Shown: positions 1,479 through 54,041 of the stretch, piece by piece
Layout of the letters: every line of letters starts with the position of its first letter
How positions within the stretch are numbered: the first letter of the stretch is position 1
Source: an uncultured Actinomycetota bacterium
GTDB lineage: Bacteria; Actinomycetota; UBA4738; HRBIN12
NCBI GenBank assembly: GCA_963724415.1
Contig: CAVRUS010000011.1
Coordinates: forward strand, 561 to 64,560
Direction: 5' to 3'
DNA length: 64,000 bases
Notes under the pieces: generated by a model
What the model saw: the letters and a program-made list of their open reading frames with translations, nothing else
Told to the model about the DNA's origin: nothing
The model's database searches: none
Made by a program: the position numbers and the translations under genes

Positions 1479-1574
1479 GCCCGCCCGGTCGATGTCAGGC
1501 GACGCGGTCGAGCATGCTCCGAGTCAGTAATGTGCTGGACGGTGTGGGGCGAAGCCCACGTCAGGAGGGGTTCG

Positions 1575-1706: not shown

Positions 1707-1713
1707 CGATCGC

Positions 1714-3253: not shown

Positions 3254-3389
3254 CCCGCTCGGGACCTTCGCGCTGGTTCGAGTCGTTCTGCGACAACCCT
3301 TGCGCTCCGCGCAGGGGCACTCGTACGCTCCACGCGCGCAGCCCTTCCCTTCCGAGCTGCGGCCGATCCGGCAAGCGAGGAGGGTCAGG

Positions 3390-6900: not shown

Positions 6901-7410
6901 GCCGGTGAGGACGCCTGCGCGGGCACGGAGGTCGGCGCCGACGTCCGCGCCGAGGGTCTCGACGGCCTCGAGCAGCTCGAGCGCCGCCCGGACCGCACGC
7001 TCGGCGTCGTCCTCGTGCGCCGCCGGCGTCCCCCAGACCGCCATCACGGCGTCGCCGATGAACTTCTCGACGAGACCGCCGTAGCGCTCGATCGTCTCCC
7101 GGGCCGTCTCGAAGTAGCGGGACAGCAGGTCGCGGACCTCCTCGGGGTCACGGCCCTCCGCGAGGTTCGTCGAGCCGACGAGGTCGGCGAACAGGACCGA
7201 CACGAGACGGCGCTCGGTCGACGGCGTGGCGGCGGCCGGGACGGGCGGGGCCGCGCTCGTGCCGATCGTCGCCCCGCACTCCCCGCAGAACTTGCTGTCG
7301 GGAGCGTTGGGCGCGCTGCATGCGTCGCAGACGATCACGAGCGCCGAGCCGCATTCCTTACAGAACTTGCGGCCCGGCTCGTTCTCGGTCCCGCAGTTCG
7401 AACAGTTCAC
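3907..7410 (-). CDS. double zinc-ribbon / class III adenylate-guanylate cyclase / STAND (AAA) NTPase / TPR protein, paralog 1
   Basis: 1167 aa. N-terminal CxxC pairs (CSNCG..CKECG, CDACS..CGECG). Cyclase motifs VSVLFADLVGST and KFIGDAVMAVWG. P-loop GIAGVGKS. A long TPR-like helical C-terminal region. The last 60 aa or so are low-complexity. Confidence 0.85.
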   Translation of the reverse strand: MNCSNCGTENEPGRKFCKECGSALVIVCDACSAPNAPDSKFCGECGATIGTSAAPPVPAAATPSTERRLVSVLFADLVGSTNLAEGRDPEEVRDLLSRYFETARETIERYGGLVEKFIGDAVMAVWGTPAAHEDDAERAVRAALELLEAVETLGADVGADLRARAGVLTGEAAATVGATSQGIVAGDLVNTASRLQSMAEPGTVLVGETTVRATGRAIAFEKFGDLTLKGKETVVPAWRALRVLGELRGAGRGEAIEPPFVGRAEDLRSIKELVRATGAERKARLVSVTGIAGVGKSRLAWELLKWIDGFVEVLYWHRGRCPSYGDGVTFWALGEMVRMRAGIAETDDPATSRRKLSASVAEFVSDPDERRWIEPRLAHLLGLDPAPHGDREELFAAWRAFFERIAEQGTIVMVFEDLQWADPGLLDFIESILEWSKSHPILIVTMARPELADKRPNWGSGQRSFTAMHLERLPDPVIAELVEGFVHGMPPESVERIVARAEGMPLYAVETVRMLVDRGALEARDDAYVLVGEVGTLDTIPETLHALIAARLDVLPPEDRALVQDASVVGMTFTVEGLAAVAGSGREQVEARLRELVRREFLGLEVDARSPERGQYSFLQALIKEVAYSTLSKPDRRSRHLAAAHHLESLSDDELAGVVATHYVEAYRASPEGPEADALAARARDWLSQAAQRALSLGSPEQAIGYAEIALDVTPKGPERASLLTTAASAATLAAWFDRAEALYEEAIALHEELGDHAAAGRATADLYEVLRPQDRRAEAAERMERALEALGDADEDVAARLCAKLAQALRATGAVEAAIPLAERALTIAERLHLTDVMIEALDAKGGAYFNLGRHREATILGRGELELADEIGSLRYRSWALMAIGIGSLEEDPAGALRAILESAETARRAGDRAGEMHGLTNAAEGAIELGSWEEAEEALHRLEGRELGTENELAREFCEILLQAHRGDVAAARRRLDGIAPRIEAAEQLAMHTWFGRESALVHLLGGDPAPAFEAAIEAVELEPSGVNAHYAAREAARAAVWLRDPDRLRRALEAMAPLRGRWIDAVRRTAEAGLAALEGRREDALAGYERALGEWRALDAPPGSGVLRRRHGPRPAGRGAHDRGPRREHGVPHGDRRRVAPRADRVRPTVTGPRRGHLTVSRR

Positions 7411-7510
7411 GTCGAAACCTCTCCTCGCCGGGGGCCGAAGCGTACCCGGAGCCTTCGAGGACCGCGCTAGGCGTGGCGTCAGCCCTTTGACACTCCCTCA
7501 GCGCGAGCGC

Positions 7511-8026
7511 ATGGTTGCCCCAGGTGGAGACCGCGGCTGGGGAGTAGAGGTGGGGAGCCCGATCGGAACGCCCGAGGTTCCGCCTCGAGTCGACGTCCCT
7601 GCCGCCCCTGCGAACCGCCGGCCCTTCGTGCTCGTGATCCTGGGGCTCGCGGTCGTCACGATCGTCGCGATCGTGCTCTTCTCAGCCGGCGGGTCCGTCG
7701 GGTCCTGCTCGGAGGAGGATCTACAGCTCGCTCAGCAGATCCCTCCCTACGGCGGCGCGGAGCTCGAGTACTTCGACGATCCCGAGGGCCCCGGCTGCGT
7801 CACACAGCTCGAGGTCGAAGCATCGGCGACCGAGGTGCTCGATCACTACGAAACGGTTCTCGAGGACGACGGCTGGGAGGTCACCGTTCAGGACGTGCCG
7901 GTTGTGGAGGGTCCCGAAGGAATGACCGTAGCCGACTTCGTCGCCGTTCGCGGCGCGTCGGAGGTGACGATCGCCCTCGAAAGCTTCGATGGTCAGGTGA
8001 GCGCCGCGATCCGGGTCGATGCCTGA
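7511..8026 (+). CDS. membrane-anchored hypothetical protein
   Basis: Start at MVAPGG; the upstream part of ORF 7226-8026 overlaps the cyclase gene. It has a TM helix FVLVILGLAVVTIVAIVLF. Its 3' end is repeated at 25083-25219. Confidence 0.5.
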   Translation: MVAPGGDRGWGVEVGSPIGTPEVPPRVDVPAAPANRRPFVLVILGLAVVTIVAIVLFSAGGSVGSCSEEDLQLAQQIPPYGGAELEYFDDPEGPGCVTQLEVEASATEVLDHYETVLEDDGWEVTVQDVPVVEGPEGMTVADFVAVRGASEVTIALESFDGQVSAAIRVDA

Positions 8027-8105
8027 GGCCGACGGACGGGAGTGCCCGGCCCTCAGCTATCCCGGCTCAGGGACGAGCGCCGAAACGGGCCGGTTGGTTG
8101 GATCG

Positions 8106-8540
8106 CTATCCGGTTGAAGGGCGTGGACCGGTGGCCGTGAAGTCCGCGGTCGAGCCGACCACGTCGACCTCGACCGTTTCGAACGACTCCTCGAGGATCC
8201 GACGGAGCCCGTCAGCGGTGTCCCCGAGGTTGTCGAAGTCGCCCTGCCAGTTGAACGCGCGCAGGCCCGCACGAGCCTGCGGCCGGTGTCGTTCCTCGAG
8301 GCCCAGGACGGTGCCGCCGAACAGCACACCTTCGGGCGCCAGAACATCGGCGATGTTCCGGATCGCCACGGCCTTGTTCGACTGCGGTCCCCGCAGGCAG
8401 TGGAGGACGTAGGTCAGCGCCACCGAGTCGAACGGACCCTCGACCGGCAGAGGCTTCATCACGTCCGCCTCGACGGGGGTCGGGTGCATCGCCGCGTGCC
8501 CGGAGGCCCAGAAGGGTTCCACCCTTCGTCGCCGGCGCAC
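8106..8540 (-). pseudogene. class I SAM-dependent methyltransferase, 5'-truncated fragment
   Basis: Only the C-terminal half is present (FDSVALTYVLHCL...LAPEGVLFGG). The GxGxG motif I region is absent upstream. Confidence 0.4.
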
Positions 8541-8735
8541 AGCGAGACATGGTGGTCCTGACGGTAGGTCCTGCGTGCCGTTCTCTCCGTAAGCCGTTTG
8601 GGCGGCTTTACGGAGAACCGCCGTCGGGTTATCGAAGCGGACACAGCGTAGTCACGATCGCGCTTGATCGTTCATCCGCTCAGTTGACAGAGGGGCAGCC
8701 GGTCGCCTGGCCGGCGCCGAGGGAGGTGGTCTCCG

Positions 8736-9545
8736 GTGGCGAGACTCGCGAGGACACGCGAAGCGATGGCCCCGAGGCGAGGCGTGCGCCTGCACCCGGT
8801 CGAGGTGAAGGACGGCAAGGCGTTCATCGGAACGAGACATATCCACCTCGGTCGTCGGAAGGACAAGAAGGATCCTCGCGACAGGATCGCGAGCCTTCCG
8901 CGACCGAGGCGAGCCACTGCGGTCCAGCTTCCCGACTTCAGATACTGGGCCGATTCCGTGTGGCGAGGCGATCAAGGGTCGTTCCCTCATTGCGTCGCGT
9001 ACTCGGCCGTCCATCGGATCGAGAACTCGCCGACGACATATCCGGCGTCCGGCCCGGTGGTCGCTCCGACGGACGTCTACGCGCGGGCGCAGCAGATCGA
9101 CGAGTGGCCGGGTGAGGCCTACGACGGAACCTCCGTGCGTGCCGGCGCGAAAGTGATGTTGGAGAAGGGTTTCATCTCGGAGTACCAGCGGATCACGTCG
9201 CTCCAGGAGCTCATCGACTTCCTTCGTTCGCCAGCGTCCGCGGGCGGCGGACCCGTGTTGATCGGGATCGACTGGCACGAGGACATGTTCTCGCCCGTCT
9301 ACGAGCAGGACGCGCTCGGCGACTATCGATGGCTGCTGATACCCACAGGGGCGGTCTCCGGCGGACATGCCGTCCTCGTGAACGGGGTCAACGTTCCTCG
9401 GGAGACGTTCAGGATCCTGAACTCATGGGGCCGTGACTGGGGCGTCGACGGCCGGGCGTCGATCCGCTTCGCCGACATGGATGACCTCCTGTTCTCGCAG
9501 GGTGGAGACGCCTGGAGGTACGTCGAGCAGCGCTCTGCGACGTGA
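8736..9545 (+). CDS. papain-like (C1 family) cysteine peptidase
   Basis: DQGSFPHCVAYSA matches Gln19/Cys25 of papain, GGHAVLVNGVN matches His159, and NSWGRDWGVDGRASIRF matches Asn175 of the NSWG motif. GTG 8736 has an upstream GGGAGG; ATG 8766 is the alternative start. Confidence 0.8.
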   Translation: MARLARTREAMAPRRGVRLHPVEVKDGKAFIGTRHIHLGRRKDKKDPRDRIASLPRPRRATAVQLPDFRYWADSVWRGDQGSFPHCVAYSAVHRIENSPTTYPASGPVVAPTDVYARAQQIDEWPGEAYDGTSVRAGAKVMLEKGFISEYQRITSLQELIDFLRSPASAGGGPVLIGIDWHEDMFSPVYEQDALGDYRWLLIPTGAVSGGHAVLVNGVNVPRETFRILNSWGRDWGVDGRASIRFADMDDLLFSQGGDAWRYVEQRSAT

Positions 9546-9586
9546 AGCAGGTCTGACGTGGAGCACACGCTGAGGGGGGCTCGCTG

Positions 9587-10531
9587 ATGGACTGGCCTGT
9601 GGTCGAGGTCGTGATCGGACTTTCGTTCATGTTCTTCTTGATCAGCATCGTCGCGTCCGCGACGAACGAGGCGATCGCCGGCATCTTCAAGTTGCGTGCG
9701 CGTTCGCTCGAGCAGGGCATCAAGAACCTCCTCACAGGCTCGACCGTTCCGGCCGCCAGGGTGGATCTCGAGATCGTCAGGAAGCTCTACGACCACGCGC
9801 TCGTGAACGGGTATCAGAAAGGCACCGACAAGAAGGAGCCCAAGCACGAACACGAGGATGCCTACAAGGGCGGGCCTTCGTACCTGTCTTCACGTTCGTT
9901 CCGGAACGCGCTCCTCGACATCACCGAGTTGCTCGAGGCGACGGCCGACCCCGCCGACGACCCGATCCCCGTGAAGGAACTCCGCGAGGCGGTCGAGGCG
10001 AAGATCAACGACCTGCCGAGCCACCTCAAGCACTCGCTGATGGCGATCTGGAGGTCCGCCAACAAGGATGCGGCCGAGTTCCGCGAGGGCGTGGAGCGAT
10101 GGTTCGATCGCGGCATGGAGCGCGTCTCCGGCTGGTACAAGCGACGGACGCAGGTGATCCTATTCGTGGTTGGGTTCGTCGTTGCGATCGCGATCAACGC
10201 GAGCGCGCTCACGGCAGCGGACCAGCTCTGGAAGGACGACGGGCTCCGGAAGGGCCTCGTTGCTCAAGCGGATCAGCAACAGGAGTCCGTCGAGGGGACG
10301 ACTGCGCTGGAACAACTCAGAGAGCTCGAGTTCCCGATCGGGTGGGGGGAATCGACTCGGCCGGACGACGTCGGAGGGTGGTTGCTCGCGATCGTCGGAT
10401 GGGTGATCACCGGTCTCGCTGTCACGCTCGGCGCGCCGTTCTGGTTCGACGCGCTCGGGAAGGTGAGCAACCTCCGGGCGGCGGGCGCCAAACCAACCAG
10501 TTCGGTCACCCCGCCAACGTCGACGAAGTAG
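9587..10531 (+). CDS. hypothetical membrane protein
   Basis: 314-aa ORF with the SD GAGGGGGG. It has N- and C-terminal TM helices and somewhat lower GC than its surroundings. Confidence 0.6.
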   Translation: MDWPVVEVVIGLSFMFFLISIVASATNEAIAGIFKLRARSLEQGIKNLLTGSTVPAARVDLEIVRKLYDHALVNGYQKGTDKKEPKHEHEDAYKGGPSYLSSRSFRNALLDITELLEATADPADDPIPVKELREAVEAKINDLPSHLKHSLMAIWRSANKDAAEFREGVERWFDRGMERVSGWYKRRTQVILFVVGFVVAIAINASALTAADQLWKDDGLRKGLVAQADQQQESVEGTTALEQLRELEFPIGWGESTRPDDVGGWLLAIVGWVITGLAVTLGAPFWFDALGKVSNLRAAGAKPTSSVTPPTSTK

Positions 10532-10647
10532 GTCGCGGAGGTGAAGCTCAACATCGAGTCGCCCTGATGCGACCTCCGCTCAGAGGACGTTCCGAAGCAT
10601 CGTCGGCGTCGCGTCTTCTTCCGGCGTCTCGCCCTCTGACTTCTGCT

Positions 10648-11685
10648 TCAGATAGCGATCGCTGAACTCGGTGTTGAGCTCGACCCACATCGGGAGGTGA
10701 TCGGACATCTGGTAAGTGCGCCAATCCCGGTAGTAGCGCTCCTTGCCTGCTTCATCGCGGTGTTGCCCCTGGACGACGTCTCATAGGCGCCGCCCATGTC
10801 GTCGATGTAGGTCATCTCGTCGTCGTCTTTGTACACCGAGTCGTAGTAGTTGAAGACGCCGCCCTTCGCCTCCTTGAGCTGATCGGCAGCATCCATCGTG
10901 ATGAATGCGATCTGGTCATAGAACTTCGTGCGCGGCGCGTTGGACGGAAGCTCCTTGAGTCCTTCCGGCACGACGAACCCCGCATCGAGGAGGGCCTTCA
11001 TCGTCAGGTCCTCCGGCGAGAAGATGTTGAAGTCTCCGAGCAGGATCATGTTGGGAGCCCACGCGAACGGCTCGTTCGCACGCGCGGCGAGGAACTCCGC
11101 GAGCAGACCGATCTCAGCCACGCGACGCGGATCCTCCGCCACAGCGCTGCCATACAGGATGTGCGTGGTGCAGATCGTGAACGCGAACCAGCCGACCCGG
11201 AATCCGACGATGAACGGCGTCCGGGCGAGCTGGTCGGCGGGGCGGTACTCGCCTCCTCCCATCGCGATCGGGGGGATCACGACCTCGCCGGCGAGGCCGC
11301 CGAAGGAGACCTTGCGTTCGTCGTACAGGAACGCCATGCGTTCCTAGTTGCCCGGCATCCCTTCCGTGACGTCGGTGAGGATGTACCGCCACCACCGGCC
11401 GAGGTAGTAGCGGAGTCGGTTCAGTGCTTGCAGATCGTCGCGGACCTCCTGGATCGCGACGACGTCGAATCGGCTGACGATCTCCGCGATATATAGGAGC
11501 GACTCCTGTGACCGCTCGCCGTACTTGGGCGAGTCGAACTCCCGGATGTTCCACGTCGCGAGGAGCAGGTTGTCGATCGTGCGACGTGGGATCTGGTGAT
11601 CGAGCTCGTCCTTGACCGTAAGGAGGCGATCGGCCGTTCGACGATCGCGATCACTGGCCGGGTCCAGGTCCGTGTATGAGGGCAT
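10648..11685 (-). pseudogene. endonuclease/exonuclease/phosphatase (EEP) family protein interrupted by an in-frame TAG at 11341-11343
   Basis: The N-part LLATWNIREF (11344-11685) and the C-part MILLGDFNIFSPED (10648-11337) are in the same frame, separated by a single amber codon (..GMPGN*ERMAFLY..). Confidence 0.7.
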
Positions 11686-11690
11686 GGTCC

Positions 11691-12734
11691 TCAGCCGATA
11701 ACCGGTGAGCCACTCACCGACTGGCTCGGCGACTGGCAATCGACGAAGGCATCGATTCGCATCGGCTCCGAGGGCGAGCTGGTCGAGCCGCTCGTGTTCG
11801 AGCCAGTCACCACAACGCGAACGGCGGGGCAATCGCTCGTCGTCGGGGTGTAGGAAGACATCGTAGCTCCGACGATATCCGTGCAGCCGTCCGGACCGTC
11901 CTCAGAGCGACAGGCGCCCTGCCACTGGTACGTGAGGTCCGGCGGGGGTGAGCCAGCCCAATCGCCTCCGATCGCCACGAAGGTCGGTTCACGATCGTCG
12001 ATGAAGGGTTCTCCTTGGGGAAGCGGGATGAGGCCGAGGGCGGCTGCCTGCTGGGCGAAGACCACCTCGTCTGGCGGGTTGAAATTGACGCTGACGAGCC
12101 TTGACTCTCCCGTGTCGAACGAGTGCTCGAGACCCATCCCCGGAGGGATCAGCCACGTCTGACCGTTCGGATCGATGGCCTCTACCGACCCCGCGAAGGT
12201 GGAGACCACGAACACGGGGTCGGCGTCGCAGGTCGTGCTGATCTGTACTGCGTCTGAGACCAGGAGCGTCCCCAAGCCGCAGAGGTCTTCTTGGCCACCG
12301 GCCTTGAACGTGCACAGTGCCCGACCACCGAGGATCCGGAACACCGTATTTTCCTGTTCGCGGGTGACCGCCGAGGCGATCTTCCCGGTCCCTGGGTCTT
12401 GACTGAATTGACACAGGGCGAGCTGACCGAACGCGAGGTCGACCACTCCGCTTCGGTCCACCCGCAGCCGCGTCAGGCAGGCGACCTGTCGGCGTTCCGT
12501 GAGTTCCGCAAAGGAGCCGCCGTCCGGCGGCAGGATCTCGATGAGTCCGCCGCCTGGATCTGCGAAGTCGTCATCGAACACGCACTCGGGTGAGTCCGAG
12601 TCGGTGGGCGACGGGGTCGCTGTCGTGGTCGACGTCTGCGTGTTCGACGGGGTGTTCGAACCCGATCCTCCCCCGGCGCAAGCCGCGAGCAGAACGAACT
12701 GCGCGACGAGGACGATCGAGCGCTTACCCCACAC
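11691..12734 (-). CDS. putative secreted lipoprotein (LLAAC lipobox), Cys-rich
   Basis: GTG start with an upstream GGAGG. N-terminal MWGKRSIVLVAQFVLLAACAGG followed by a Thr/Ser-rich linker. Confidence 0.6.
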   Translation of the reverse strand: MWGKRSIVLVAQFVLLAACAGGGSGSNTPSNTQTSTTTATPSPTDSDSPECVFDDDFADPGGGLIEILPPDGGSFAELTERRQVACLTRLRVDRSGVVDLAFGQLALCQFSQDPGTGKIASAVTREQENTVFRILGGRALCTFKAGGQEDLCGLGTLLVSDAVQISTTCDADPVFVVSTFAGSVEAIDPNGQTWLIPPGMGLEHSFDTGESRLVSVNFNPPDEVVFAQQAAALGLIPLPQGEPFIDDREPTFVAIGGDWAGSPPPDLTYQWQGACRSEDGPDGCTDIVGATMSSYTPTTSDCPAVRVVVTGSNTSGSTSSPSEPMRIDAFVDCQSPSQSVSGSPVIG

Positions 12735-12827
12735 TCACGTGCCTCCGACGGTGCCAGGCGTCAACGAGTGCCTTCTCCCAGCGCCGCAGGCTGGCCATCA
12801 GGCCTTGCACAGCCACGCCGAGCGGCG

Positions 12828-14277
12828 TTACCACGAACACCCCGACGAAACCTCCCAACAACGGGACGATGATTCCCGGGTCGCGATCCACTCGGACGGG
12901 ACGAGCTCGCCCGTTTCGGTCAGAGCGCTCGTGGTGGTGACCGAGTGCATGAAGAGCGATTGCTGTCCAGTTTCAAGTTTGAGAGTGGCAGCGAACGGAT
13001 CGCTGGGATCGGCCTCGAGCGTGAGGACCGCGGGCGACGAGAACGCAGTCGCATCGCCGGGGGATAGGACGATCTGTCCCGAGAGTCCCTCCAGATCGGC
13101 GCGCGCCCCGTAGGCTTTCAGGGTCAACCCGTCGACGGAGCGGAGCTCGAACGTTGGCGGAACACCTCCCTCGCCCGACCCGATGACCAGATGAAGTGAG
13201 CCCTCGCATCGGGTCACCGCTTCCTCGCCCGTGAACTCGACCAGCGACGTGAGGTCTCCTCGCGATACCTCGAGCGTGACGCCTGGCCCGGGCGCACTGA
13301 AGCACAGACTCGGCGTCGATCGCGTGCGGGTGAAGAGCGCGACCCCGATGGGATCCGGGAGCGAGCCGAAGGGCGCGATGTCAAGGCTCCGCCCTTCTAC
13401 CCTGGCGCCGCCGCTGGAAACGTATTGCGGGCTCGACCACGTGAGCTCGACTGGCGTCCTCGCGATCCGGACCTCTCCGTCCACGCACTCGCCATCTAGG
13501 TCGTCCGCCAACCTGTCGCATCTCGTGTCCGGCAGCGGAAGGAGGACCACCGCCGTTCCGTCCGTCGCCCCGCTTACCGCGAGCTCTCGGACGTATCCGC
13601 CCTCGAGCGACCAGCGTACGGATCCGGGACCTCCCCTCATCGTGAGGTGACGGAGCGTCGTGACGCTCTGCGTCGTCACGGTGGCCGCCACCGGCGGTCG
13701 CCAGTCGTGGAGCACGTTGTACCCGGTGATGGCAAGGCTCGCGCCCACCATCGCGAGGATCAAGGCGAGGACGCCTGAGGTGCTCGATGCCTGGGGCCGA
13801 GATTCCCGAAATGCGCTCGCGAGGATCGCACGATCCTCAGGGGTGAAGACTGGCCGTCGCGCGCCACCCCAGAACTCGTCGTGTTCCTGGAGATCGGAGG
13901 GGTAGATCCACGCCTCCTTCACCCGTCCATTGGCCATCGAGAACCGGACGCATTGCCGATCGCTCAACGCCCGCCCGTTCCTGGAGGCCGTGAGGTGTTG
14001 CCACGCCACCAGGTCCGGTCCGCGCTCCGATACGTCCTCGAGCTCGATCCGGACGCTGTCGTCCGAGAGTTCGCCGAGCGAACGGAAGTACGCATCGATC
14101 TTCTCGACGCCGGCGAACGTCCCTGCGACGCGGCTGCGTCCCGGGACGTGCAGGACGGCGTCCGGCGCGAAGACGAGATCTCCCCGCGAATCGCCACTGA
14201 GGAACGAGGCGTAGTCGCGCTCGAAGTCTGAGCGTCGGCGCGACCGCGCCGGTTGGCGGGTTCGTCCACAGCGCACG
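12828..14277 (-). CDS. SnoaL/NTF2-like domain / TM / extracytoplasmic domain protein (start uncertain)
   Basis: DYASFLSGDSRGDLVFAPDAVLHV...ANGRVKEAWIYPSD is a SnoaL-like fold, followed by the TM helix VLALILAMVGASLAITGY and a domain of about 300 aa. The upstream 130 aa of ORF 12828-14630 are RG-rich and rejected. The GTG at 14277 is a guess. Confidence 0.55.
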
Positions 14278-44139: not shown

Positions 44140-45030
44140 TCAGTGAAGGTCACGCACCATCGCTCGGAGATGCTCGAGCTTCTCGGGGTTGCTGACGGCG
44201 TGCATGGTCTGCACCTGACCGTCAACGATGTCGAGCGAGACGGCCGCGATGGCCACGTCGTCGGCATCGAGGAACAGCGCGCCGGGCTGGCCGTTGATCT
44301 CGGCGCGACGCATCGTGACGACGCCCAGGCGCCTGCCCTGTGTGGCACCCGCCTGCAGGAGCCGGGCAACCTTCTCGCGACCGTGGACCGGCTTCGGGAA
44401 GGCGAACCCCTTGCCACCGCCATCGGCGTACGCGACAACGTCGGCCGCAAGCATGCTCACGAGGTCCTCGACTTCCCCCTCCGCCGCCGCCGCGAAGAAT
44501 CGCTGCGCGAGCTCGTCCCGTTCCGCCTTCGACGCATCGAACCGCGGCTTCCCGGCCTGCACCTGCCGGCGCGCGCGGACCGCGATCTGGCGGCAGTTCT
44601 CCTCGCTCTTGCCCACCACCGATGCGATCTCGTCGTAGTCGTACTCGAAGACCTCCCGCAGCAGGAAGACGGCACGCTCGACGGGCGTGAGGCTCTCGAG
44701 GAGCACCAAGAACCCCATCGAGAGCGAATCGGCCGTCTCCGCGTGACGCTCGGCATCCGAGGTCTCGTCCGTGAGCAGTGGCTCGGGGAGCCACGTGCCC
44801 ACGTAGGACTCGCGGCGTACCCGCGCGGACCGCAGGTGGTCGATGCACAGGCGGGTCGCGACGGCCGACAGGTAGGACTTCGGCGACTGGACCTGCGTGC
44901 CGGCGGCGGTCTCGCGGTGGTAGCGCAGGAACGCCTCTTGCACGATGTCCTCAGCGTCGGTGGCGCTACCGAGCATCCGGTAGGCGATCGAGAACAGCAG
45001 CGGCCGCAGCTCGGCGACAGGGTCGTCCAT
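44140..45030 (-). CDS. ECF41-type RNA polymerase sigma factor with SnoaL-like C-terminal extension
   Basis: Sigma2 region DIVQEAFLRY and sigma4 region. The ECF41 signature YVGTWLPEP is followed by a C-terminal extension of about 120 aa. Start at MDDPVAEL. Confidence 0.85.
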   Translation of the reverse strand: MDDPVAELRPLLFSIAYRMLGSATDAEDIVQEAFLRYHRETAAGTQVQSPKSYLSAVATRLCIDHLRSARVRRESYVGTWLPEPLLTDETSDAERHAETADSLSMGFLVLLESLTPVERAVFLLREVFEYDYDEIASVVGKSEENCRQIAVRARRQVQAGKPRFDASKAERDELAQRFFAAAAEGEVEDLVSMLAADVVAYADGGGKGFAFPKPVHGREKVARLLQAGATQGRRLGVVTMRRAEINGQPGALFLDADDVAIAAVSLDIVDGQVQTMHAVSNPEKLEHLRAMVRDLH

Positions 45031-45071
45031 GCGCGCCTCCAAAGCGGATCGTCGTCTCCATCCTCCCACGG

Positions 45072-45098
45072 GACGAAGGAGGCCCTCGATCCGTGACA
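45072..45098 (-). promoter_or_regulatory. candidate ECF41-type promoter (TGTCACG-N16-CGTC) upstream of the sigma factor gene
   Basis: Minus-strand reading is GTTGTCACGG atcgagggcctcctt CGTC. The -10 element lies about 42 nt upstream of ATG 45030. Confidence 0.5.
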
Positions 45099-45130
45099 AC
45101 GGCTGCGTGACTCTCCTCGGAGCCGGACCG

Positions 45131-47282: not shown

Positions 47283-49478
47283 TCAGGGAGTGCGGATCAG
47301 GTGGTTCGCGACGTCGGCTTCGAAGTCGTCGAGGCTGAGCTCGGCGATGCGATCGACATCCACGGTCTGCAGGCTGAACGAGAACGTCGTCCCGACGCCG
47401 AGCTGAGAGTCCACCCAGATCCGTCCGGACATCGCCTCGACGAGCGTGCGCGCGATGTAGAGCCCGAGTCCCGTGCCCGGCCGGCGCGCCGCGCCGTTCT
47501 GCACACGGTAGAAGCGGTCGAACACCAACTCGCAGTGCTCCGGCGCGATGCCTTCGCCCTGGTCGCTCACGGAGATCGTCACCGAACCCTCGGCCGTCCG
47601 AGTGCCGACCGTGATCGGCAGGCCCGCCGGCGTGTACTTGTCCGCGTTCGTGAGCAGGTTCAACACGATCTGCTCCACGCGGAACGGATCGGCGAACACG
47701 ATCGTCGCCCGGTCCAGGTCACTGAGCACGACCGGGCGATCCGAGTGCTGCTCCCGGAACTCCGTGACGACGCGGGTGAGCACGTGGCCGAGCGGCATCG
47801 GCTGGAGGTCCACCACGAGGCCGCCGGCCTCGATCAGCGAGACGTCGAGCATGTCGTTCACGACGCGCTCGAGACGTTGCGCCTGGCGCAGCATGATCCG
47901 GTAGTACTCCTGCAGCTTCTCGGGCGAATCGTCGACGGTGCCCTCGACGAGGCTCGTGAGGAACCCGCGGAGCGGCGTGAGCGGGGAGCGCAGCTCGTGG
48001 GAGACCATCGAGACGAAGTCGCGCTTGATCTGCTCGGCCTTCATCTCCTCGCCGGCGTCGCGCACCACGACGATCTGCTGGGGCGGCGCGTCCTCGTCGT
48101 CGCGGATCGTGCTGGTCCGGAGGCGCAGCTCCTTCGTCGCGCCGTCCTTCGTGGTCGCCGTGGTGTCGCCGAGCCGGCCGTTGCCGTCGTCCTCCGCGGC
48201 GAGCACGGTGATCATGCCGAGCCCGAGGAGCTCCTCGCAGCGCTTGCCGATCGCGTCGTCCTCCGAGTAGCCCACGATCGCGTGCATCGCCGGGTTCCAC
48301 GACCTGATCAAGCCGTCCGGGTCAACCGTGAAGACGCCGTCGGAGGTGTGCGAGACGATCTCCGAGAGTCGGGCGCGCTCGAGGGTCTTGCCGTACAGGC
48401 GGTGGTTCCACAGGCGAGCGGCGATCTGGCTCGCGAAGCCGTCGACGAGGACACGCTCCGTCGCCGTGAGGGCCTCCTCCCGGTAGACCGCGAGCACCCC
48501 ACGGACGTCCTCGCCGTCGCCGACGAGGGCGATCTGGGGGGCGACCCCGCTGTGCACCGCGACGAACGCGTCCAGCGGATCGACGCCGGCGTCGTCGATC
48601 GTGAGGTGGCGGATGCCATTCGAGGTGTGCACGGCGACGGCGGTGTCGTCCACGACGACGAGCTCCACGCGGTCGGCCGGGAGCAGCTTCTCGAGCAGCC
48701 CGAGGAAGTCGCCGAAGCGCTCGGTGGTGGCCATCGGTGCGGAGAGCACGCGGCCCGCCTCGTAGAGGCTCCGCATCTGTTCGCGCTCCTTGACGCCTTC
48801 GACCCACCGTTGGTACGTGACGTAGGCGAGCCCGACCGGCGCGATCATCAGGATCAGCGCGACCGGCTCCGCGGCCCAGACCAACGCCGCGAGGATGCCC
48901 AGGGCGACGTTGCCGAGCCAGTGCAAGACGTTGATCGCGAGCGGGAGACGGAACACGTCGAGGAACCGGGTGCGCTCGACCATCGACACGACCAGCATGA
49001 TCGCGGTGGCGTTCACGGCGAAGGCGACGTACATCGCGGCCAGGACGGCGGCCCAACGCGCCGGGTCGGCCGGTCCCGAACCCCACCCGCCGAGGACGGC
49101 GAACGTGAGCTCCGCGAGGGTGAGCCCGATCAGGAACTGCGAGACGTTGTAGGTGATCTTGAACGGCTTCCAGCGGTTCAGGCCCTCGCCCACGACGACG
49201 CCGAGGAGCACGGCGACCGTCAGGACGCCGGGCGACACGAGGAGGAGCGCGCCGGCCCACACGCCGTCGGTGAGCGCGAAGTTCACGGTTTCGGTGCCGC
49301 GCCGCAGCGGGATCGAGTACCGCTCGGCCGCGATCGTGAGTCCCGCGATCACCGCGACGGCGAGGAGGTCCTGCATGTCCCAGCGCGTGATCTCGGGCAC
49401 GCGGATCGCGAGGCAGCCGATCGCGAGCAACGCCGCGCCCGTGATCAGGAGCTTCACCGAACGAGGAAGTGCCTTCAT
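47283..49478 (-). CDS. sensor histidine kinase (polytopic membrane N-domain, PAS, HisKA, HATPase)
   Basis: H-box FVSMVSHELRSPLTPLRGF and N/G boxes in the C-terminus. Six or more TM helices at the N-terminus. SD GAGGGGA. Confidence 0.9.
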   Translation of the reverse strand: MKALPRSVKLLITGAALLAIGCLAIRVPEITRWDMQDLLAVAVIAGLTIAAERYSIPLRRGTETVNFALTDGVWAGALLLVSPGVLTVAVLLGVVVGEGLNRWKPFKITYNVSQFLIGLTLAELTFAVLGGWGSGPADPARWAAVLAAMYVAFAVNATAIMLVVSMVERTRFLDVFRLPLAINVLHWLGNVALGILAALVWAAEPVALILMIAPVGLAYVTYQRWVEGVKEREQMRSLYEAGRVLSAPMATTERFGDFLGLLEKLLPADRVELVVVDDTAVAVHTSNGIRHLTIDDAGVDPLDAFVAVHSGVAPQIALVGDGEDVRGVLAVYREEALTATERVLVDGFASQIAARLWNHRLYGKTLERARLSEIVSHTSDGVFTVDPDGLIRSWNPAMHAIVGYSEDDAIGKRCEELLGLGMITVLAAEDDGNGRLGDTTATTKDGATKELRLRTSTIRDDEDAPPQQIVVVRDAGEEMKAEQIKRDFVSMVSHELRSPLTPLRGFLTSLVEGTVDDSPEKLQEYYRIMLRQAQRLERVVNDMLDVSLIEAGGLVVDLQPMPLGHVLTRVVTEFREQHSDRPVVLSDLDRATIVFADPFRVEQIVLNLLTNADKYTPAGLPITVGTRTAEGSVTISVSDQGEGIAPEHCELVFDRFYRVQNGAARRPGTGLGLYIARTLVEAMSGRIWVDSQLGVGTTFSFSLQTVDVDRIAELSLDDFEADVANHLIRTP

Positions 49479-49491
49479 GTCGTGTCTCCCC

Positions 49492-51183
49492 TCAGCTCCA
49501 TGCGACGGAGCTCCACGAGTTCGAGCTCCAGGAGTTCGAGCTCCATGAGTTCGAGCTCCATGAATTCGAGTTCCAGTACATGCCGCTCCACGAGTTGGAG
49601 CTCCACGAGTTGCTCGACCATCCGCTGTTCTCGGCGATCAACGACGACCACGCGGTGGAGGACCAGGAGTTCGACGACCAGGAGGTCGACGACCACGAGT
49701 TCGAGTCCCACGGAGCGCCGAGGACGTCCATCTCGCCGGTCACGAGGTCCGGCTCGCCGTCGTGGTTCACGTCCGCGTACACGTGGAACTTCCCGCGGCT
49801 GCCCTCGAGGGAGCCGACGCCGAGCGACCGGATCAATCCCGCGTTCGCCCAGTCGCCGCTGCCGATGCTCTGCAGGGCGCCGAGCGCGTCGACCATGCCG
49901 GAGCCGCCACCCGTGCGGTACTGGGAGGCTCGGAACGTGCTCCCCATCAGGATGCTCTTGACCGCGCTCGGCTTGAGGGTCGGGTTCGCCTGGTACAGCA
50001 GGGCCGCCACGCCGGAGACCACCGCGCCGGCCTGCGACGTGCCGGTCCCCTTGAAGTAGTCCTCGTCGACGACGGCGTCCTGATGGAACCCGTCGATCGT
50101 GCTTCCCACGTCGCGCGTCGCCACGATCGTCGTGCCGGGGGCGACGATGTCGGGCTTCGTGAACCCGTCCTGGGTGATGGCGCTGCTGGAGAAGGGGGCG
50201 ACCTCGTCGTCCTTGCGATCGGCGGTCTGGTGCACGTCGACCGCTCCGACCGTGATCACGAACGGGTCGTCGCCGGGCTTGTTGATCGTCCCGGGCCCGC
50301 GGTTCCCGGACGAGACGACCACGGCGATCCCGGCGGCCCACGCACGCTCCACCGCTGCGTTCAACGGGTCGATCGCGTAGGGCTGGAGGCTGTCCGTCCC
50401 GAAGGAGAGGTTCAACACCTTGATGCCGTACTGCGCACGATGGGTGACGACCCACTGGAGCGCCGCGATCACGACCGAGACGTCGGTGGATCCGTCGGGA
50501 CCGGCGACCTTGACCGAGACGAGCTTGGCCCCGGGTGCGACCCCGCGCCACTTGCCGTCGGAGGCCGCGCCGTTGCCGGCGATCACGCCGGCCATGTGCG
50601 TGCCGTGCCCGTAGGCGTCGTCGCCGCCGGCGTCGGGCGTGAAGTCCACGCGCGCCACGACCCGGTCACCGAGGTCCTCGACCTGCGCGACCCCTGTGTC
50701 GATCAGCGCGACCGTGACGCCGGACCCGTCGGCGCCGGCGGGGAGCTGCGACAGGCGGATCGACTTCCGCCACGCGAGGTTCGGCTCGATGTCGTCCCAC
50801 GCTCCCGTGCCGACCGCCGTCATCTGGATCCGGCCGTCGACGTACACGCCGCTGATCGACGGGTCGCGCGCAAGCATCGGGAGTCGGTTCTGCGGGACGT
50901 CGGCGGCGAACCCGCCGATCAGGGGGAGCGGTCTGGTGACGTGTCCGCCGACGGCCTGGACGAGGTCCTCGGCGAGATCGGCGGAGGGGATGCGCTCGTG
51001 AACAACGATGGAGAGGGTCGGGGCCGCCGGAGCGAACGGTGCGTGCGCCAGGGCGGCGACGAGAAGGGCGCTCACGACGAGACCGATCAGGACCGTGAAC
51101 TCGTGGCGTTGTGGGCTGGTCGCGACAGCCAGGCGGGGGGTGCCGATCGGGGCCAATCTGCTTCCTTCCGTGTTCCGGCACAT
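49492..51183 (-). CDS. S8 family (subtilisin-like) serine peptidase with C-terminal Trp/Ser pentapeptide repeats
   Basis: ALIDTG (Asp), HGTHMAG (His) and GTSQAG (Ser). Start taken at MCRNTEG, though MDRDG is also possible. The stop is 13 nt upstream of the kinase start. Confidence 0.85.
   Translation of the reverse strand: MCRNTEGSRLAPIGTPRLAVATSPQRHEFTVLIGLVVSALLVAALAHAPFAPAAPTLSIVVHERIPSADLAEDLVQAVGGHVTRPLPLIGGFAADVPQNRLPMLARDPSISGVYVDGRIQMTAVGTGAWDDIEPNLAWRKSIRLSQLPAGADGSGVTVALIDTGVAQVEDLGDRVVARVDFTPDAGGDDAYGHGTHMAGVIAGNGAASDGKWRGVAPGAKLVSVKVAGPDGSTDVSVVIAALQWVVTHRAQYGIKVLNLSFGTDSLQPYAIDPLNAAVERAWAAGIAVVVSSGNRGPGTINKPGDDPFVITVGAVDVHQTADRKDDEVAPFSSSAITQDGFTKPDIVAPGTTIVATRDVGSTIDGFHQDAVVDEDYFKGTGTSQAGAVVSGVAALLYQANPTLKPSAVKSILMGSTFRASQYRTGGGSGMVDALGALQSIGSGDWANAGLIRSLGVGSLEGSRGKFHVYADVNHDGEPDLVTGEMDVLGAPWDSNSWSSTSWSSNSWSSTAWSSLIAENSGWSSNSWSSNSWSGMYWNSNSWSSNSWSSNSWSSNSWSSVAWS
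49495..49710. repeat. 15-nt tandem repeat (about 14 units of gagctccaNgagttc) encoding (SNSWS)n
   Basis: Periodic DNA. The protease C-terminus reads NSWSSTSWSSNSWSS...SNSWSSNSWSSNSWSSNSWSSVAWS. Confidence 0.85.
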
Positions 51184-51399
51184 GGCGTCGGCCGGACGAA
51201 GGCCCACTTTGACCCCACGCAGGCCGACGGCGCTATCACTCGAAAGGGCATTCTCGACTCCGCCACGACCGTCGCGGTCCATCGGGCAGACGACCGACGT
51301 CCCGCCCGGACGGGGGATGCCCGGACCGGGACCTTCGGTACCTGTTGGGGGGACAACGACCGTTCGACTGACGGGAGACGGTGTGGTTGTCTCGCGGCG

Positions 51400-52083
51400 A
51401 TGGATCCGGACGTCGCAGAGGCGCTGGCGAAGAGCTTCCTGGGACGACTCCCCTCCGAGGTCGTCGACCCGCTGCTCGAGGACCAGGTCCGCCTCGACTA
51501 CCCGGCGGGCACGACCATCTACCGAGGTGGCGAGCCTGCCCGCGCGATCCTCGTGGTCTCGGGGCTGATCCGGATCTACGTGGCCTCTCGCCGGGGCCGC
51601 CAGGTGACGATCCGCTACGGGCGTCCGACGGACGTTCTCGGGACCGCGCTCATCATCGGCGGGCCGCTCAACGCCCACGCCCAGACCCTGTCGCCGACCA
51701 GCGTCTTGCAGATCGACGCGCGCCGGCTCGAGGACGCCGCACGCCGCGACGCTCGTCTCGCCTACGCGATGGCGGAGCAGGTGAGCGACCGGCTCGATGA
51801 GGCGATCGAACAGATCGCGATCAACACCTTCGGGTCCGTGATGCAGCGGGTCGCTTCCCAGCTCCTCGAGCTCGCTTCCACGCAGCAACGGCCGGAGGCC
51901 CCGCTCGTGGCGGAGGTGTCCCAGCAGGAGCTGGCCGATGCCATCGGATCCGTCCGGGAGGTCGTCGCGCGCGCCCTCCGGGGTCTGGGCGCCGCCGGGA
52001 TCGTGGCGACCTCGAAAGACCACATCGAGATCCTCGATCCCATCCGCCTCCACGAGGAGTCCCGGAGCAGTCGCCGCGCGTGA
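51400..52083 (+). CDS. Crp/Fnr family transcriptional regulator
   Basis: cNMP-binding beta-roll (GEPARAILVVSGLIRIY) and C-terminal HTH (ELADAIGSVREVVARALRGL). Confidence 0.8.
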   Translation: MDPDVAEALAKSFLGRLPSEVVDPLLEDQVRLDYPAGTTIYRGGEPARAILVVSGLIRIYVASRRGRQVTIRYGRPTDVLGTALIIGGPLNAHAQTLSPTSVLQIDARRLEDAARRDARLAYAMAEQVSDRLDEAIEQIAINTFGSVMQRVASQLLELASTQQRPEAPLVAEVSQQELADAIGSVREVVARALRGLGAAGIVATSKDHIEILDPIRLHEESRSSRRA

Positions 52084-52255: not shown

Positions 52256-52707
52256 ATGACCACCTACTTCGAGAACGTCATCAAGATCGAACAGGCCACG
52301 CGAGGAGGTCTTCGCGTTCCTGGCAGATCTCGAGAACGTCCCCAGTTGGAATCCGGCGATCGAGGTCCACATGGAAGACTTCTCCGTCTTCCGTCGGGGT
52401 CGGGATCGAGTACCGACAGATCCGTTCCGCGCCGGAGAGGAGCGAGGAGGTTCTCGAGGTCACCGCGTTCGAGCCCCCGCGCCGCTTGATCATCGAGCTT
52501 CAGGTCGGGCCGTTCCGGGCACGGACCGGCTATACGCTGGAGGCGGCAGAGGCAGCGACGCGGCTGACGAACTGGGTGGAGCTGGAACCTCCGTCGATCA
52601 TCTCGCGGGTCGTGGTTCCGCTCGCTGCGTCGCAGAGCAAGGCCGTGGTCGCATCGAACCTCGAACGGCTGAAGCGGATCCTCGAAGACACGCGACTCAG
52701 CATCTAG
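52256..52707 (+). pseudogene. SRPBCC (Bet v1-like / polyketide cyclase) family protein with about 2 frameshifts
   Basis: MTTYFENVIKIEQAT, REEVFAFLADLENVPSWNPAIE and RRLIIELQVGPFRARTGYTLEA lie in three different frames. The length is not a multiple of 3. Confidence 0.6.
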
Positions 52708-52760
52708 CGGCTGGATCCCGGTCCGCCCGCCGCCCGTCGGTGGCGCGTACGCTCGCCGAC

Positions 52761-54041
52761 GTGAACGCGAGGTCGCAGGAGCTCCGGCGGTCCGTGCCAG
52801 CTCTGGTGGCAGGGCTGACGGTCACGATCGTGTTCCTCGCGGTGCTGAGCATCGTGCTCACCGCGGCCGGCCCGGACGGGCTCGCCCTCTCGGACCAGCG
52901 CGAGAGCGAGTGGATCGCGCTCCTGTACGGCCTCCCGATGATCCCGAGCCTCATCCTCACGCTCCGGTACCGGATGCCGTTGCTGCTCACCGGGAACGTC
53001 TTCGCGATCATCTTCTTCGTCTCGCTCGGGGATCGGGTCTCGTTCGAGGAGCTCGCCGGCGCGACGATGCTCGCCGGAGCGATCGTGCTCGTGACCGCGT
53101 TCCTCGGGCTCACAGGGCAACTCGCGCGATGGATACCCGCTCCCATCGTGCACGGCCTGATCGCGGGGGCGGTGATGCCCTTCCTCGTCGGCGTCTTCTC
53201 CTCGCTCAGCACGTCCGACGGCGAGTGGCGGGTCGCGGTCATGGTCGGGGCCGCCGTGGTCGGATACCTCGTCGGGCAGCGGCTGCTCGGCACGCGGTTC
53301 CCGGCGATCGTGCCGGCGTTCCTCGCGGGATCTCTCGCCGCGCTGCTGACCGGGCAGCTCGGCGAGTTCTCCTCGACGTTCTCGCTCCCCTCGTTCGAAC
53401 TCGTCCGCCCCGTGTTCTCGCTCACGGCGATCCTCACGGTCGCCCCGGTGCTCCTCGCGGTGATGACCGTGCAGTCGAACATCCCGTCCGTGATCTACCT
53501 GCGGGGCCAGGGATTCGCGCCGCCCGAGCGGTTGATCAACCTCGTGAGCGGCGGGACCACGCTCGTCGGATGCCTCTTCGGACCGGTCGCCGTGTCGCTC
53601 GCGCTGCCGCCGGTCCTGGTGACGGCAGGGCCCGACGCAGGGGAGCGGTCCCTCCGCTACCGGGCGCTCTTCCTCCCCGTGGCGGCGGGGCTGCTGATCG
53701 CGCTGTTCGCCGCCGTGGCCGCCGACCTCGCACAGCTGATCCCACCGGTGTTGCTGCTGGCGATCGCGGGGCTCGCTCTGGTGCCCGCGTTGGTGGCAGC
53801 CCTCAAGGCGATCAGCGAGGGCCCGCTCGTCTTGGGGCCGCTGTTCGCGTTCGCGATCGCGCTGTCGGACATGACGATCCTCGGCCTCGGCCCGTTCTTC
53901 TGGTCCCTCGTCGTCGGCACGGCGATCTCGTCGTTCCTCGAACGGGACGGGATGAAGGAGCTAGGGCAGCGAGCGAGACGCCGGTGGCGGGGCGCCGTCA
54001 ACTGGTGTTCCCGCGGGCGACAGCGCATTGTTCTGATCTGA
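52761..54041 (+). CDS. BenE-family benzoate/H+ symporter-like membrane transporter
   Basis: About 426 aa with about 12 TM helices. The GTG start is inferred. Confidence 0.55.
   Translation: MNARSQELRRSVPALVAGLTVTIVFLAVLSIVLTAAGPDGLALSDQRESEWIALLYGLPMIPSLILTLRYRMPLLLTGNVFAIIFFVSLGDRVSFEELAGATMLAGAIVLVTAFLGLTGQLARWIPAPIVHGLIAGAVMPFLVGVFSSLSTSDGEWRVAVMVGAAVVGYLVGQRLLGTRFPAIVPAFLAGSLAALLTGQLGEFSSTFSLPSFELVRPVFSLTAILTVAPVLLAVMTVQSNIPSVIYLRGQGFAPPERLINLVSGGTTLVGCLFGPVAVSLALPPVLVTAGPDAGERSLRYRALFLPVAAGLLIALFAAVAADLAQLIPPVLLLAIAGLALVPALVAALKAISEGPLVLGPLFAFAIALSDMTILGLGPFFWSLVVGTAISSFLERDGMKELGQRARRRWRGAVNWCSRGRQRIVLI

Follow-up and report, generated by a model that had tools for sequence, protein, structure and literature searches.

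A subtilase with a tryptophan-every-five tail paired with a MASE9-like sensor kinase in an uncultured Actinomycetota bacterium, and related pairs in other phyla

MASE-type membrane domains head many bacterial kinases and cyclic di-GMP (c-di-GMP) enzymes. MASE9 (Pfam PF20972) was defined as a domain of eight predicted segments, of which a short pair makes up a hairpin inside the membrane, and with poorly conserved periplasmic loops; the defining paper argues that the ligand is bound in the membrane, cites no ligand or partner by name and never mentions a protease (Galperin and Chou, bioRxiv 10.1101/2021.11.05.467447). Only a single member has been studied. Here we describe a gene pair in a 64,000-nucleotide stretch of DNA from an uncultured Actinomycetota bacterium (contig CAVRUS010000011.1; the whole stretch is called the window below), where the gene for a subtilisin-like S8 protease ending in a repeat with Trp at every fifth residue (the W5 tail) is followed closely by a gene for a sensor histidine kinase with a MASE9-like membrane domain. 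Like MASE9, this domain is polytopic, probably (by inspection of an alignment) with about eight segments, a hairpin and short loops, and is fused promiscuously to HD-GYP, GGDEF-EAL and kinase modules. In contrast to MASE9 as defined, the domain in the window obtains no Pfam score, and the link to a Trp-tailed subtilase is absent from the defining paper. A near-obligate partner that recurs across phyla is a concrete, testable candidate for the MASE9 input.

The closest described proteases, in sequence as well as in fold, are the AprX/Tk-SP-type subtilases with terminal extensions (PDB codes 3afg and 9ues), which share with the window protease its predicted pre-pro architecture and the catalytic Asp, His and Ser at 29–39% identity. 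The predicted model of the window protease aligns with Tk-SP through the catalytic region only (query residues ~139–406), and the Trp tail is without counterpart in solved structures. The mycosins, the S8 proteases of type VII secretion systems, are actinobacterial enzymes that a C-terminal anchor holds at the membrane. Among NCBIfam models, theirs (TIGR03921) fits the catalytic domain best, but the score of 132.3 bits is far under the cutoff of 278.75, the tail contains no hydrophobic or transmembrane helix, and there are no ESX genes nearby (none within 8 kb in the related locus L001, from a strain with a 98%-identical protein), and a mycosin identity was rejected.

Among signalling systems, the intramembrane-sensing kinases with accessory proteins (BceS-BceAB, LiaS-LiaF and GraS-VraG; PMC7951975) likewise have a sensor that lacks an ectodomain and receives its input from a genetically linked partner, but those sensors cross the membrane twice and work with transporters or small membrane proteins, whereas the pair described here would combine a MASE9-type domain of ~8 segments with a secreted protease. 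LapD-LapG (PMC3032553) is also a membrane signalling protein paired with an extracytoplasmic protease; LapD differs in having a folded periplasmic domain and in acting as a c-di-GMP receptor from the inside out, LapG is a cysteine protease, and the two systems are unrelated in sequence. In plants, subtilases (SBTs) make peptide ligands (PMC13082318), so that there too an S8 protease stands upstream of a membrane receptor or signalling pathway, although the precursors are separate small proteins, unlike the repeat array fused to the protease considered here, the processing of which is hypothetical. In the literature searched, we found no work describing subtilase tails rich in Trp, partners of MASE9, or HD-GYP proteins together with subtilisin. 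Subtilases, MASE9 and orphan kinases are already known; what is apparently undescribed is the Trp-every-five tail and its near-obligate pairing with a MASE9-type domain.

Pairing of the W5-tailed protease with a MASE9-like partner

In the window, the protease gene (49492..51183, minus strand, as for all features of the pair given below; open reading frame (ORF) list and Pfam Peptidase_S8; stop codon TGA at 49494-49492) is separated from the kinase gene (47283..49478, 731 amino acids (aa), ATG at 49478-49476; ORF list, Pfam and NCBIfam) by a spacer of 13 nucleotides (nt) at 49479..49491 that reads ggggagacacgac. The spacer opens with GGGGAG (49486-49491), a Shine-Dalgarno sequence 7 nt ahead of the kinase ATG, in agreement with a first-pass annotation of this DNA, which had reported the gap and a ribosome-binding site within it. 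That annotation took the arrangement to imply co-transcription, and held that a terminator between the genes would speak against it; a sequence scan found no terminator-like sites there. Because of the 13-nt gap, the Shine-Dalgarno sequence, the lack of a terminator in that scan, and the conservation of gaps of 1–23 nt in more than 70 related loci, co-transcription of protease and kinase is very likely.

A scan of species-representative genomes with the protease gave 49 loci, nearly all from uncultured Actinomycetota. All loci in which the protease is at least 55% identical and downstream DNA is available carry an orthologue of the kinase (47–99% identity) 1–23 nt past the protease stop codon. 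More distant S8 genes (31–48% identity) carry W5 tails of other types (TSSWY, GFHWT, GNSWS, STSWS, ASSWS, NASWA). An iterative hidden Markov model (HMM) search, seeded with kinase residues 1–240 and covering both strands of 51 loci (all ORFs of 120 aa or more), matched only the gene directly downstream of the Trp-tailed S8 gene, save for a second copy further downstream on the same strand in L034. A match was obtained in every locus with a clear tail and enough DNA, down to ~31% protease identity, while a Pedococcus locus (L049) has neither a Trp tail nor a sensor match and L039, with a weak VVSWG tail, has no sensor match.

The pairing also holds when approached from the sensor. Fifty metagenome loci were fetched by way of the membrane domain (44–89% identity; alignment A5, narrower than the alignment A3 discussed below), 46 of them with at least 150 nt of upstream DNA, and in 44 of these 46 a W5 ORF ends 2–23 nt before the sensor start. 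One more of the 46, L084, has a remnant tail that is short.

Beyond the window clade, a query of the ARAWD type finds cultured Planosporangium and Dactylosporangium together with metagenome-assembled genomes (MAGs) of Frankiaceae and Nanopelagicales, and one of the GISWD type finds MAGs of Chloroflexota and Dehalococcoidia together with Salirhabdus salicampi (Bacillota). The cross-phylum evidence consists of a handful of context look-ups, in all of which (12 of 12) a MASE9-like gene lies beside a Trp-tailed S8 gene, cultured Planosporangium, Dactylosporangium and Salirhabdus as well as Chloroflexi MAGs included. The pair therefore occurs in Actinomycetota, Chloroflexota and Bacillota, and since cultured carriers are available (Planosporangium, Dactylosporangium sucinum and Salirhabdus salicampi), genetics and biochemistry are feasible.

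The cytoplasmic part of the partner varies widely. By Pfam, the partners include kinases of the PAS-HisKA-HATPase (window clade) and GAF-HisKA-HATPase architectures, proteins of c-di-GMP type (PAS-GGDEF-EAL, GAF-GGDEF-EAL, GGDEF alone and HD-GYP alone), a protein with GGDEF followed by a second membrane domain and HD-GYP, and stand-alone membrane proteins (238–277 aa) followed by a HisKA_3 kinase gene or by a gene for an extracytoplasmic function (ECF) sigma factor. Judging from these architectures, the part that travels with the Trp-tailed protease is the membrane domain, not the kinase part. Varied outputs on a constant membrane domain are the pattern expected if the conserved contact is between protease and membrane domain and the cytoplasmic output is interchangeable. 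The best explanation of the sequence comparisons is that the two genes form one co-transcribed and co-inherited signalling unit.

The kinase of the window comprises MASE9-like, GAF-like, PAS, HisKA and HATPase_c domains. The MASE9-like polytopic domain (~residues 1–230; 48789..49478), delineated from alignment A3, hhalign and the HMM, is followed by a GAF-like linker domain (~residues 240–365; 48384..48761; GAF_3 14.7 bits, E 0.041), for which clear GAF domains are found at the equivalent position in relatives such as L031 and L034. Pfam places the PAS domain at residues 370–474 (48057-48371), HisKA at residues 485–552 (47823-48026; 64.2 bits) and HATPase_c at residues 597–704 (47367-47690; 102.5 bits). 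The kinase boxes are complete, with the H-box His494 at 47997-47999, the N box at residue 607, G1 at 639 and G2 at 668.

Assignment of the membrane domain to MASE9 is indirect. The 16-sequence profile A3 aligns with the Pfam-MASE9-positive region of the L045 protein at 95.6% hhalign probability (E 1.3e-8), in an alignment that spans the R..K..(F/Y)N motif (R102..K107..(F/Y)N111 in the window). The kinases of L056 and L057 pass the Pfam MASE9 cutoff of 24.3 with 26.6 and 26.2 bits and are recognised by the A3 HMM at ~1e-40, and two Chloroflexi partner proteins score 22.1 and 17.5 bits with the Pfam model. On these grounds the domain in the window is probably a divergent MASE9. Inspection of A3 indicates a probable intramembrane hairpin at ~residues 70–100 with basic cytoplasmic loops on either side, and outer loops of ~3–12 residues that are poorly conserved.

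Two paralogous cassettes are present in some MAGs, with L004 and L011 on one contig (CAWIUW010000013.1, ~20 kb apart) and L003 and L013 in the same MAG, and their proteases are ~77% and 68% identical to that of the window. The tail of L013 ends early (…STSWSPPRGRH) and the kinase match there falls into two parts; L014 also has a fragmented kinase match. Either these copies are decaying or the assemblies contain frameshifts. L110 contains two tandem pairs at 2918-9425, each an S8 protease with a SITWD tail and a MASE9-like protein (called as 187 aa and 277 aa, respectively), with a gene for an ECF sigma factor after them, and a third, 277-aa copy of the MASE9-like protein lies further upstream (812-1645). 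The stand-alone membrane protein in L110 may be an anti-sigma factor, in which case the protease would be the site-1 protease acting on it. L111 has an array of at least five S8 genes at 1537-14251 with AVNWN or SVNWN tails, some of them split by frameshifts, together with one stand-alone MASE9-like gene of 238 aa (A3 HMM E 2e-24) and an HD-GYP gene at the edge of the locus.

The protease, its tail and the repeat DNA

The protease would have 563 aa if started at the ATG at 51183, and 554 aa if started at the TTG at 51156-51154. The TTG is the likelier start, since it is preceded by the Shine-Dalgarno sequence GGAAGGAAG (51161-51169) and since the “MAPIGT” start of most homologues (554 aa) aligns there. 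The identification as an S8 protease made in the first-pass annotation is borne out by the Pfam Peptidase_S8 model (PF00082), which gives 161.8 bits against a cutoff of 21.8 over residues 153–423 (49915..50727; 563-aa numbering, also used for the following residues). The catalytic residues are Asp162 in DTG (50698-50700), His193 in HGTH (50605-50607) and Ser383 in GTS (50035-50037), with Asn294 (50302-50304) as the oxyanion residue. All four are invariant in alignments A1 (42 sequences) and A4 (148 sequences), and because they are present and invariant the protease should be active. Homologues number 5419 and are labelled “serine protease AprX” by JGI.

Ahead of the catalytic domain, a hydrophobic helix (residues 19–37 of the 554-aa form; 51046..51102) is presumed to be a Sec signal peptide or signal anchor; it is helical in the AlphaFold2 (AF2) model, and the hydrophobic stretch is conserved in A1. 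The following segment (residues 47–106 of the 554-aa form; 50839..51018) resembles an I9-type N-terminal propeptide, with a confidently predicted beta-alpha-beta fold (predicted local distance difference test score, pLDDT, 82–95) whose best Foldseek matches are the pro-forms of Tk-SP and Tk-subtilisin; the Pfam I9 model gives no match on the window protease. These predictions derive from an AF2 model based on the 148-sequence alignment (mean pLDDT 76.8, catalytic core confident), while a model from 42 close homologues was uninformative (mean pLDDT 47). Both in sequence and by Foldseek, the nearest solved structures are Tk-SP (3afg, 9ues) and the classical subtilisins.

Between the catalytic domain and the tail lies a conserved motif, GVGSLEGSRGKFHVYADVNHDGEPDLVTGEMDVLGAP (49711..49821), with the pattern G.GSLE.SRG...GE.D[IV].G made up of invariant columns in A1. 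It also precedes many distant Trp tail types on S8 proteins, and its pLDDT here is 43–66. Within this region, residues 468–476 (VYADVNHDG, 49756-49782) form part of a D-x-N-x-D-G-x-x-D stretch, with a weak FG-GAP match (18.5 bits against a cutoff of 22.1), that may be a calcium-binding loop.

The W5 tail itself comprises 72 residues, W492 to S563 (49495..49710; period 15 by Tandem Repeats Finder, TRF), and reads WDSNSWSSTSWSSNSWSSTAWSSLIAENSGWSSNSWSSNSWSGMYWNSNSWSSNSWSSNSWSSNSWSSVAWS. Its 14 Trp residues are spaced by five in 12 of 13 cases and by 10 in the remaining one, which supports the Trp/Ser pentapeptide array of the first-pass annotation. The tail is arranged in three blocks: five Trp followed by the linker SSLIAENSG, then three Trp, and then SGMYW and five more Trp, with VAWS at the C-terminus. 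The same layout is found in all 120 best homologues (65–98% identity). In the 113 homologues that could be parsed, the first block has 4–6 Trp (five in 100 of them) and is followed by an SSLI(A/S)EN.G linker, the middle block has three Trp without exception, and the last block begins with SG(M/T)xW and has 4–9 Trp. The tail is predicted to be intrinsically disordered, with a pLDDT of 24–36 and no secondary structure in a model that is otherwise confident.

The tail has no Pfam or NCBIfam match, also when the isolated C-terminus is searched at E<=10, and no PDB sequence matches the C-terminal 122 residues at E<=10. A pentapeptide-repeat beta-helix (A(D/N)LXX) was considered and rejected, given the lack of a Pfam match, the xxxWx unit with its variable other positions, and the absence of a beta-helix in the AF2 model. 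The known Gram-positive wall-binding repeats (LysM, SLH, GW, choline-binding, ChW and WxL) likewise gave no Pfam or NCBIfam match for either the protease or its isolated C-terminus at E<=10.

When 1.84 billion representatives were searched by phmmer with the 75-residue tail region, 54 matches came up at E<=1e-3, with tail types such as GNSWT x32, ARAWA, GRRWS, GISWD x37, GVRWT and AHRWA among others, many of them preceded by the pre-tail motif. The first-pass annotation had proposed a search for homologous Trp tails on other exoproteins; all 10 full-length prokaryote-like matches scanned are Peptidase_S8 proteins, and in the samples scanned W5 tails occur on no other exoenzyme class. Among the 120 best homologues of a Chloroflexi-type (GISWD) member, 108 have at least four W-5-W spacings. 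The tail represents an apparently new C-terminal repeat confined to one subtilase branch in these samples. Several of the tail matches (P0125, P0129, P0134, P0146, P0152, P0156, P0159 and P0172) are long low-complexity proteins with a Trp period of five, eukaryote-looking or unrelated (e.g., WNGQV x93 and ERAWR), which probably share the periodicity with W5 tails and not ancestry.

Across tail types, Trp and the period of five are the only invariants. The other positions are uniform within a protein and lineage-specific (examples of units are SNSWS, ARAWA, GISWD, AIKWG and SILWR), with Ser, Asn and Thr in the window clade and Ala/Arg/Glu/Asp, Gly/Ile/Asp or Ser/Ile/Leu/Arg elsewhere, and the tails have between 4 and over 40 copies. 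In the window clade the tail has a Wimley-White interfacial free energy of ~ -15 kcal/mol; the median is ~0 in the Arg-rich clade. Plain partitioning into the membrane interface was rejected as a property shared by the tails, the values being ~0 or unfavourable in the Arg/Glu-rich clades.

The first-pass annotation described about 14 tandem units at 49495-49710 and regarded the repeat as a contingency-type locus prone to slippage. On such a reading, its copy number would change fast and vary the protease surface. The count stands for the peptide. The DNA, by contrast, is interrupted and degenerate, and TRF resolves it into two period-15 arrays at 49508-49611 (6.9 copies, 79% matches) and 49642-49704 (4.2 copies, 79%), with mixed Ser codons and a longest exact repeat of 17 nt. 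Variation of the last block among lineages, the 4–6 Trp of the first block, and three adjacent units that differ at the wobble base only, could be taken as traces of slippage. However, the 15-nt unit is a multiple of three, so that no frame switching of the on/off kind is possible, and the constant middle block is difficult to reconcile with rapid change. In the strain with the 98%-identical protein, in which the proposed check for copy-number variation was made, the tail differs at 1 of 249 nt and the copy number is the same. Furthermore, in ten orthologues the ratio of nonsynonymous to synonymous divergence (pN/pS) of the tail is 0.05–0.33 at a pS of 0.36–0.61 in the closer ones and ~0.6 in the most distant, much like that of the catalytic domain (0.15–0.46), and because of this similarity the tail peptide itself is taken to be under purifying selection. 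Copy number, judging by the parsed homologues, drifts slowly and in the last block only. The contingency reading is largely refuted, and we give it next to no credence.

Possible routes from protease to sensor

The conserved pairing suggests that the protease supplies the input of MASE9-type sensors. How it would do so can be sketched tentatively, and to the arrangement that follows we assign somewhat less than an even chance: the protease would serve as the extracytoplasmic half of the sensor, either tethered to it or sensing with it, and the tail would be the coupling element. The subtilase would be made as a pre-pro-enzyme and exported, and its mature form would end in the disordered Trp tail. 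The sole membrane or extracytoplasmic part of the sensor would be its divergent MASE9 domain, with short outer loops and an intramembrane hairpin; since these loops are very short and the hairpin is intramembrane, the sensor should have no ligand-binding ectodomain of its own. Once the N-terminal propeptide has been cut off, the Trp tail would keep the enzyme at the membrane, where the MASE9-like domain would meet the tail either at the interface or in an intramembrane pocket. Whether protease and tail are bound, displaced or trimmed would then decide how active the cytoplasmic output is; in the window this output would be a PAS-HisKA-HATPase kinase signalling to a response regulator encoded elsewhere. 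Export of the protease, physical contact between tail and MASE9-like domain, and the direction of signalling are steps that we infer. If it is true that the protease or its tail drives the sensor, the pair would represent a new way in which bacteria connect two-component and c-di-GMP signalling with proteolysis outside the cell or with peptides of their own making.

Several points weigh against the protease and its tail acting on the sensor in this manner. The loci were sampled via the tail or the sensor, by which unpaired members may be missed, and gene pairing alone cannot give a direction of control. Export is deduced from the hydrophobic N-terminal helix only. The tail, whose contact with the sensor is putative, is without structure in the AF2 model; the tails of other clades contain 24% charged residues and have an interfacial free energy near zero or unfavourable, and a comparison of tails with sensor loops showed no complementarity of charge. 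Finally, Pfam MASE9 (PF20972) gives no match on residues 1–379 of the window kinase, even at E<=10.

Other arrangements of the same parts also have to be weighed. The tail could be a tandem precursor of peptide signals, with the subtilase or a sister protease cutting after each Trp and releasing pentapeptides (SSNSW, SSTSW) that pass to the membrane as ligands of the MASE9-like domain, in an autocrine or quorum-type circuit. A C-terminal tail predicted to be disordered would be accessible to cleavage, the strict period and the large range in copy number fit such a string, and the four positions other than Trp are uniform within a protein and different between lineages, as peptide specificities would be, with units kept identical in the protein while their codons drift. 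MASE9 ligand binding is moreover thought to be intramembrane, and the plant subtilases that produce ligands for receptor kinases provide a precedent (PMC13082318). What such a string would not need is the fixed three-block layout with its conserved odd units and linkers (SSLIAENSG, SGMYW and the terminal VAWS), and apart from Trp there is no cleavage-site motif, and we consider a peptide precursor unlikely, if still worth attention. In Bacillus, subtilisin, Epr and Vpr release the Phr pentapeptides, and in fungi precursors with tandem repeats are cleaved by Kex2; like the units of the tail, the Phr signals are about five residues long. In its most extended form, the proposal would make the W5-tailed subtilases the input device of MASE9 sensors by means of tails that are tandem, lineage-specific Trp pentapeptides, released by the protease, partitioning into the membrane and read by the adjacent MASE9, as a protease–pheromone fusion circuit that feeds into kinases, c-di-GMP enzymes or sigma factors and is found in Actinomycetota, Chloroflexota and Bacillota. 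This full chain is decidedly improbable as it stands, and yet there is a real chance that something categorically new is hidden here in a fusion of protease and pheromone.

Control could also run the other way, with cytoplasmic PAS or GAF inputs prompting the MASE9-like protein to dock, mature or release the protease by way of its tail, in the manner of LapD-LapG or of a C-terminal tag handled by a dedicated polytopic partner. That the conserved core consists of protease and membrane domain, with some partners (238–277 aa) standing alone without output, agrees with such a role, as does the GGDEF-EAL architecture of several partners, which is that of LapD; inside-out control of periplasmic proteolysis is established for LapD-LapG (PMC3032553). 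Against this, the catalytic boxes of the window protein are complete, as expected of an active kinase, and this points to signalling from the outside in, MASE9-like domains offer almost no periplasmic surface for holding a folded protease, and no catalytic residues hinting at a sorting enzyme were identified, and reverse control is accordingly given a low probability. The simplest alternative supposes no direct interaction at all, the protease being a nutritional or wall-remodelling exoenzyme with a Trp tail that binds cell-wall or other glycans, as the first-pass annotation had considered possible for the tail, and the sensor merely co-expressed. Regularly spaced Trp residues flanked by Ser, Thr or Asn are typical of sugar-stacking surfaces, the tail would be extracytoplasmic, and its putative contact with the sensor leaves room for this explanation. 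Co-expression alone is, however, hard to reconcile with a near-obligate, two-way adjacency in three phyla and at least seven output arrangements, and a glycan anchor would have to be one without a match to the wall-binding families named above, predicted to be disordered, and found on S8 proteases only in the samples scanned, unlike typical carbohydrate-binding modules. We regard it as unlikely, though not to be dismissed.

Candidate regulators and neighbouring genes

The first-pass annotation described a sensor without an adjacent response regulator, and this is upheld: tblastn with CheY, PhoB and NarL queries found no receiver domains at E<=1 in the whole 64-kb window, and there are no Response_reg genes within 8 kb at the related loci L001 and L002. 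In clades with Arg-rich tails, a REC-only gene of ~126–140 aa adjoins the pair (L055 5621-6001, L056 5612-6004, L057 5398-5781 and L054 10308-10730); it adjoins the protease start in L055 and overlaps the protease gene by 4 nt in L056. In the Dactylosporangium locus L053, REC-HDOD and REC-HD-GYP genes flank the pair (4263-5832 and 10078-11214). The REC genes beside the pair are candidate cognate regulators and, although the window clade is without them, suggest what type of regulator the window kinase may have. The trio of REC, S8 and kinase genes in L055–L057 stands in a conserved housekeeping neighbourhood: all three loci have an IMPDH-family gene upstream, L056 and L057 have groES there as well, and in L055 and L056 a GMP synthase gene lies downstream. 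L056, which is labelled “Acidobacteria bacterium”, also has tsaE, tsaB, rimI and tsaD upstream, a synteny that we take to be typical of Actinomycetota, and the contig may be mis-binned.

Upstream of the protease in the window, a divergent Crp/Fnr-family regulator gene (51400..52083, plus strand, 227 aa; Pfam cNMP_binding 8.8e-14 and HTH_Crp_2 2.8e-14) is located as the first-pass annotation had it. It is not part of the conserved unit, since among the related loci only the 98%-identical strain has the same neighbour; flanking genes vary between loci, and L002 has NERD and BON genes in the Crp position. The intergenic region between the Crp and protease genes (51157..51399), which includes the alternative ATG and the upstream Shine-Dalgarno sequence, is the presumed promoter region and contains no sigma-70-like consensus. 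A search for Crp boxes (TGTGA-N6-TCACA, at most two mismatches) gave 6 matches against 11.8 expected and none in the intergenic region, and a link of the gene pair to Crp is not supported.

Further neighbours, seen in the ORF list and in strain L001, are a gene for an ECF-type sigma factor with a SnoaL-like C-terminal domain (44140-45099, minus strand) and a BenE-family permease gene (52371-54041, plus strand), the adjacency of which to the cassette is not kept at other loci. Long antisense or out-of-frame ORFs of 886, 773 and 358 aa run over the pair at 47301-49961 (plus strand), 49762-52083 (plus strand) and 49475-50551 (minus strand). The real Crp gene forms the 3' part of the second of these, and the remaining long ORFs are the usual artefacts of DNA with 68.7% G+C. 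When the tail repeat is read on the plus strand, a pseudo-repeat of the ELHEF type results.

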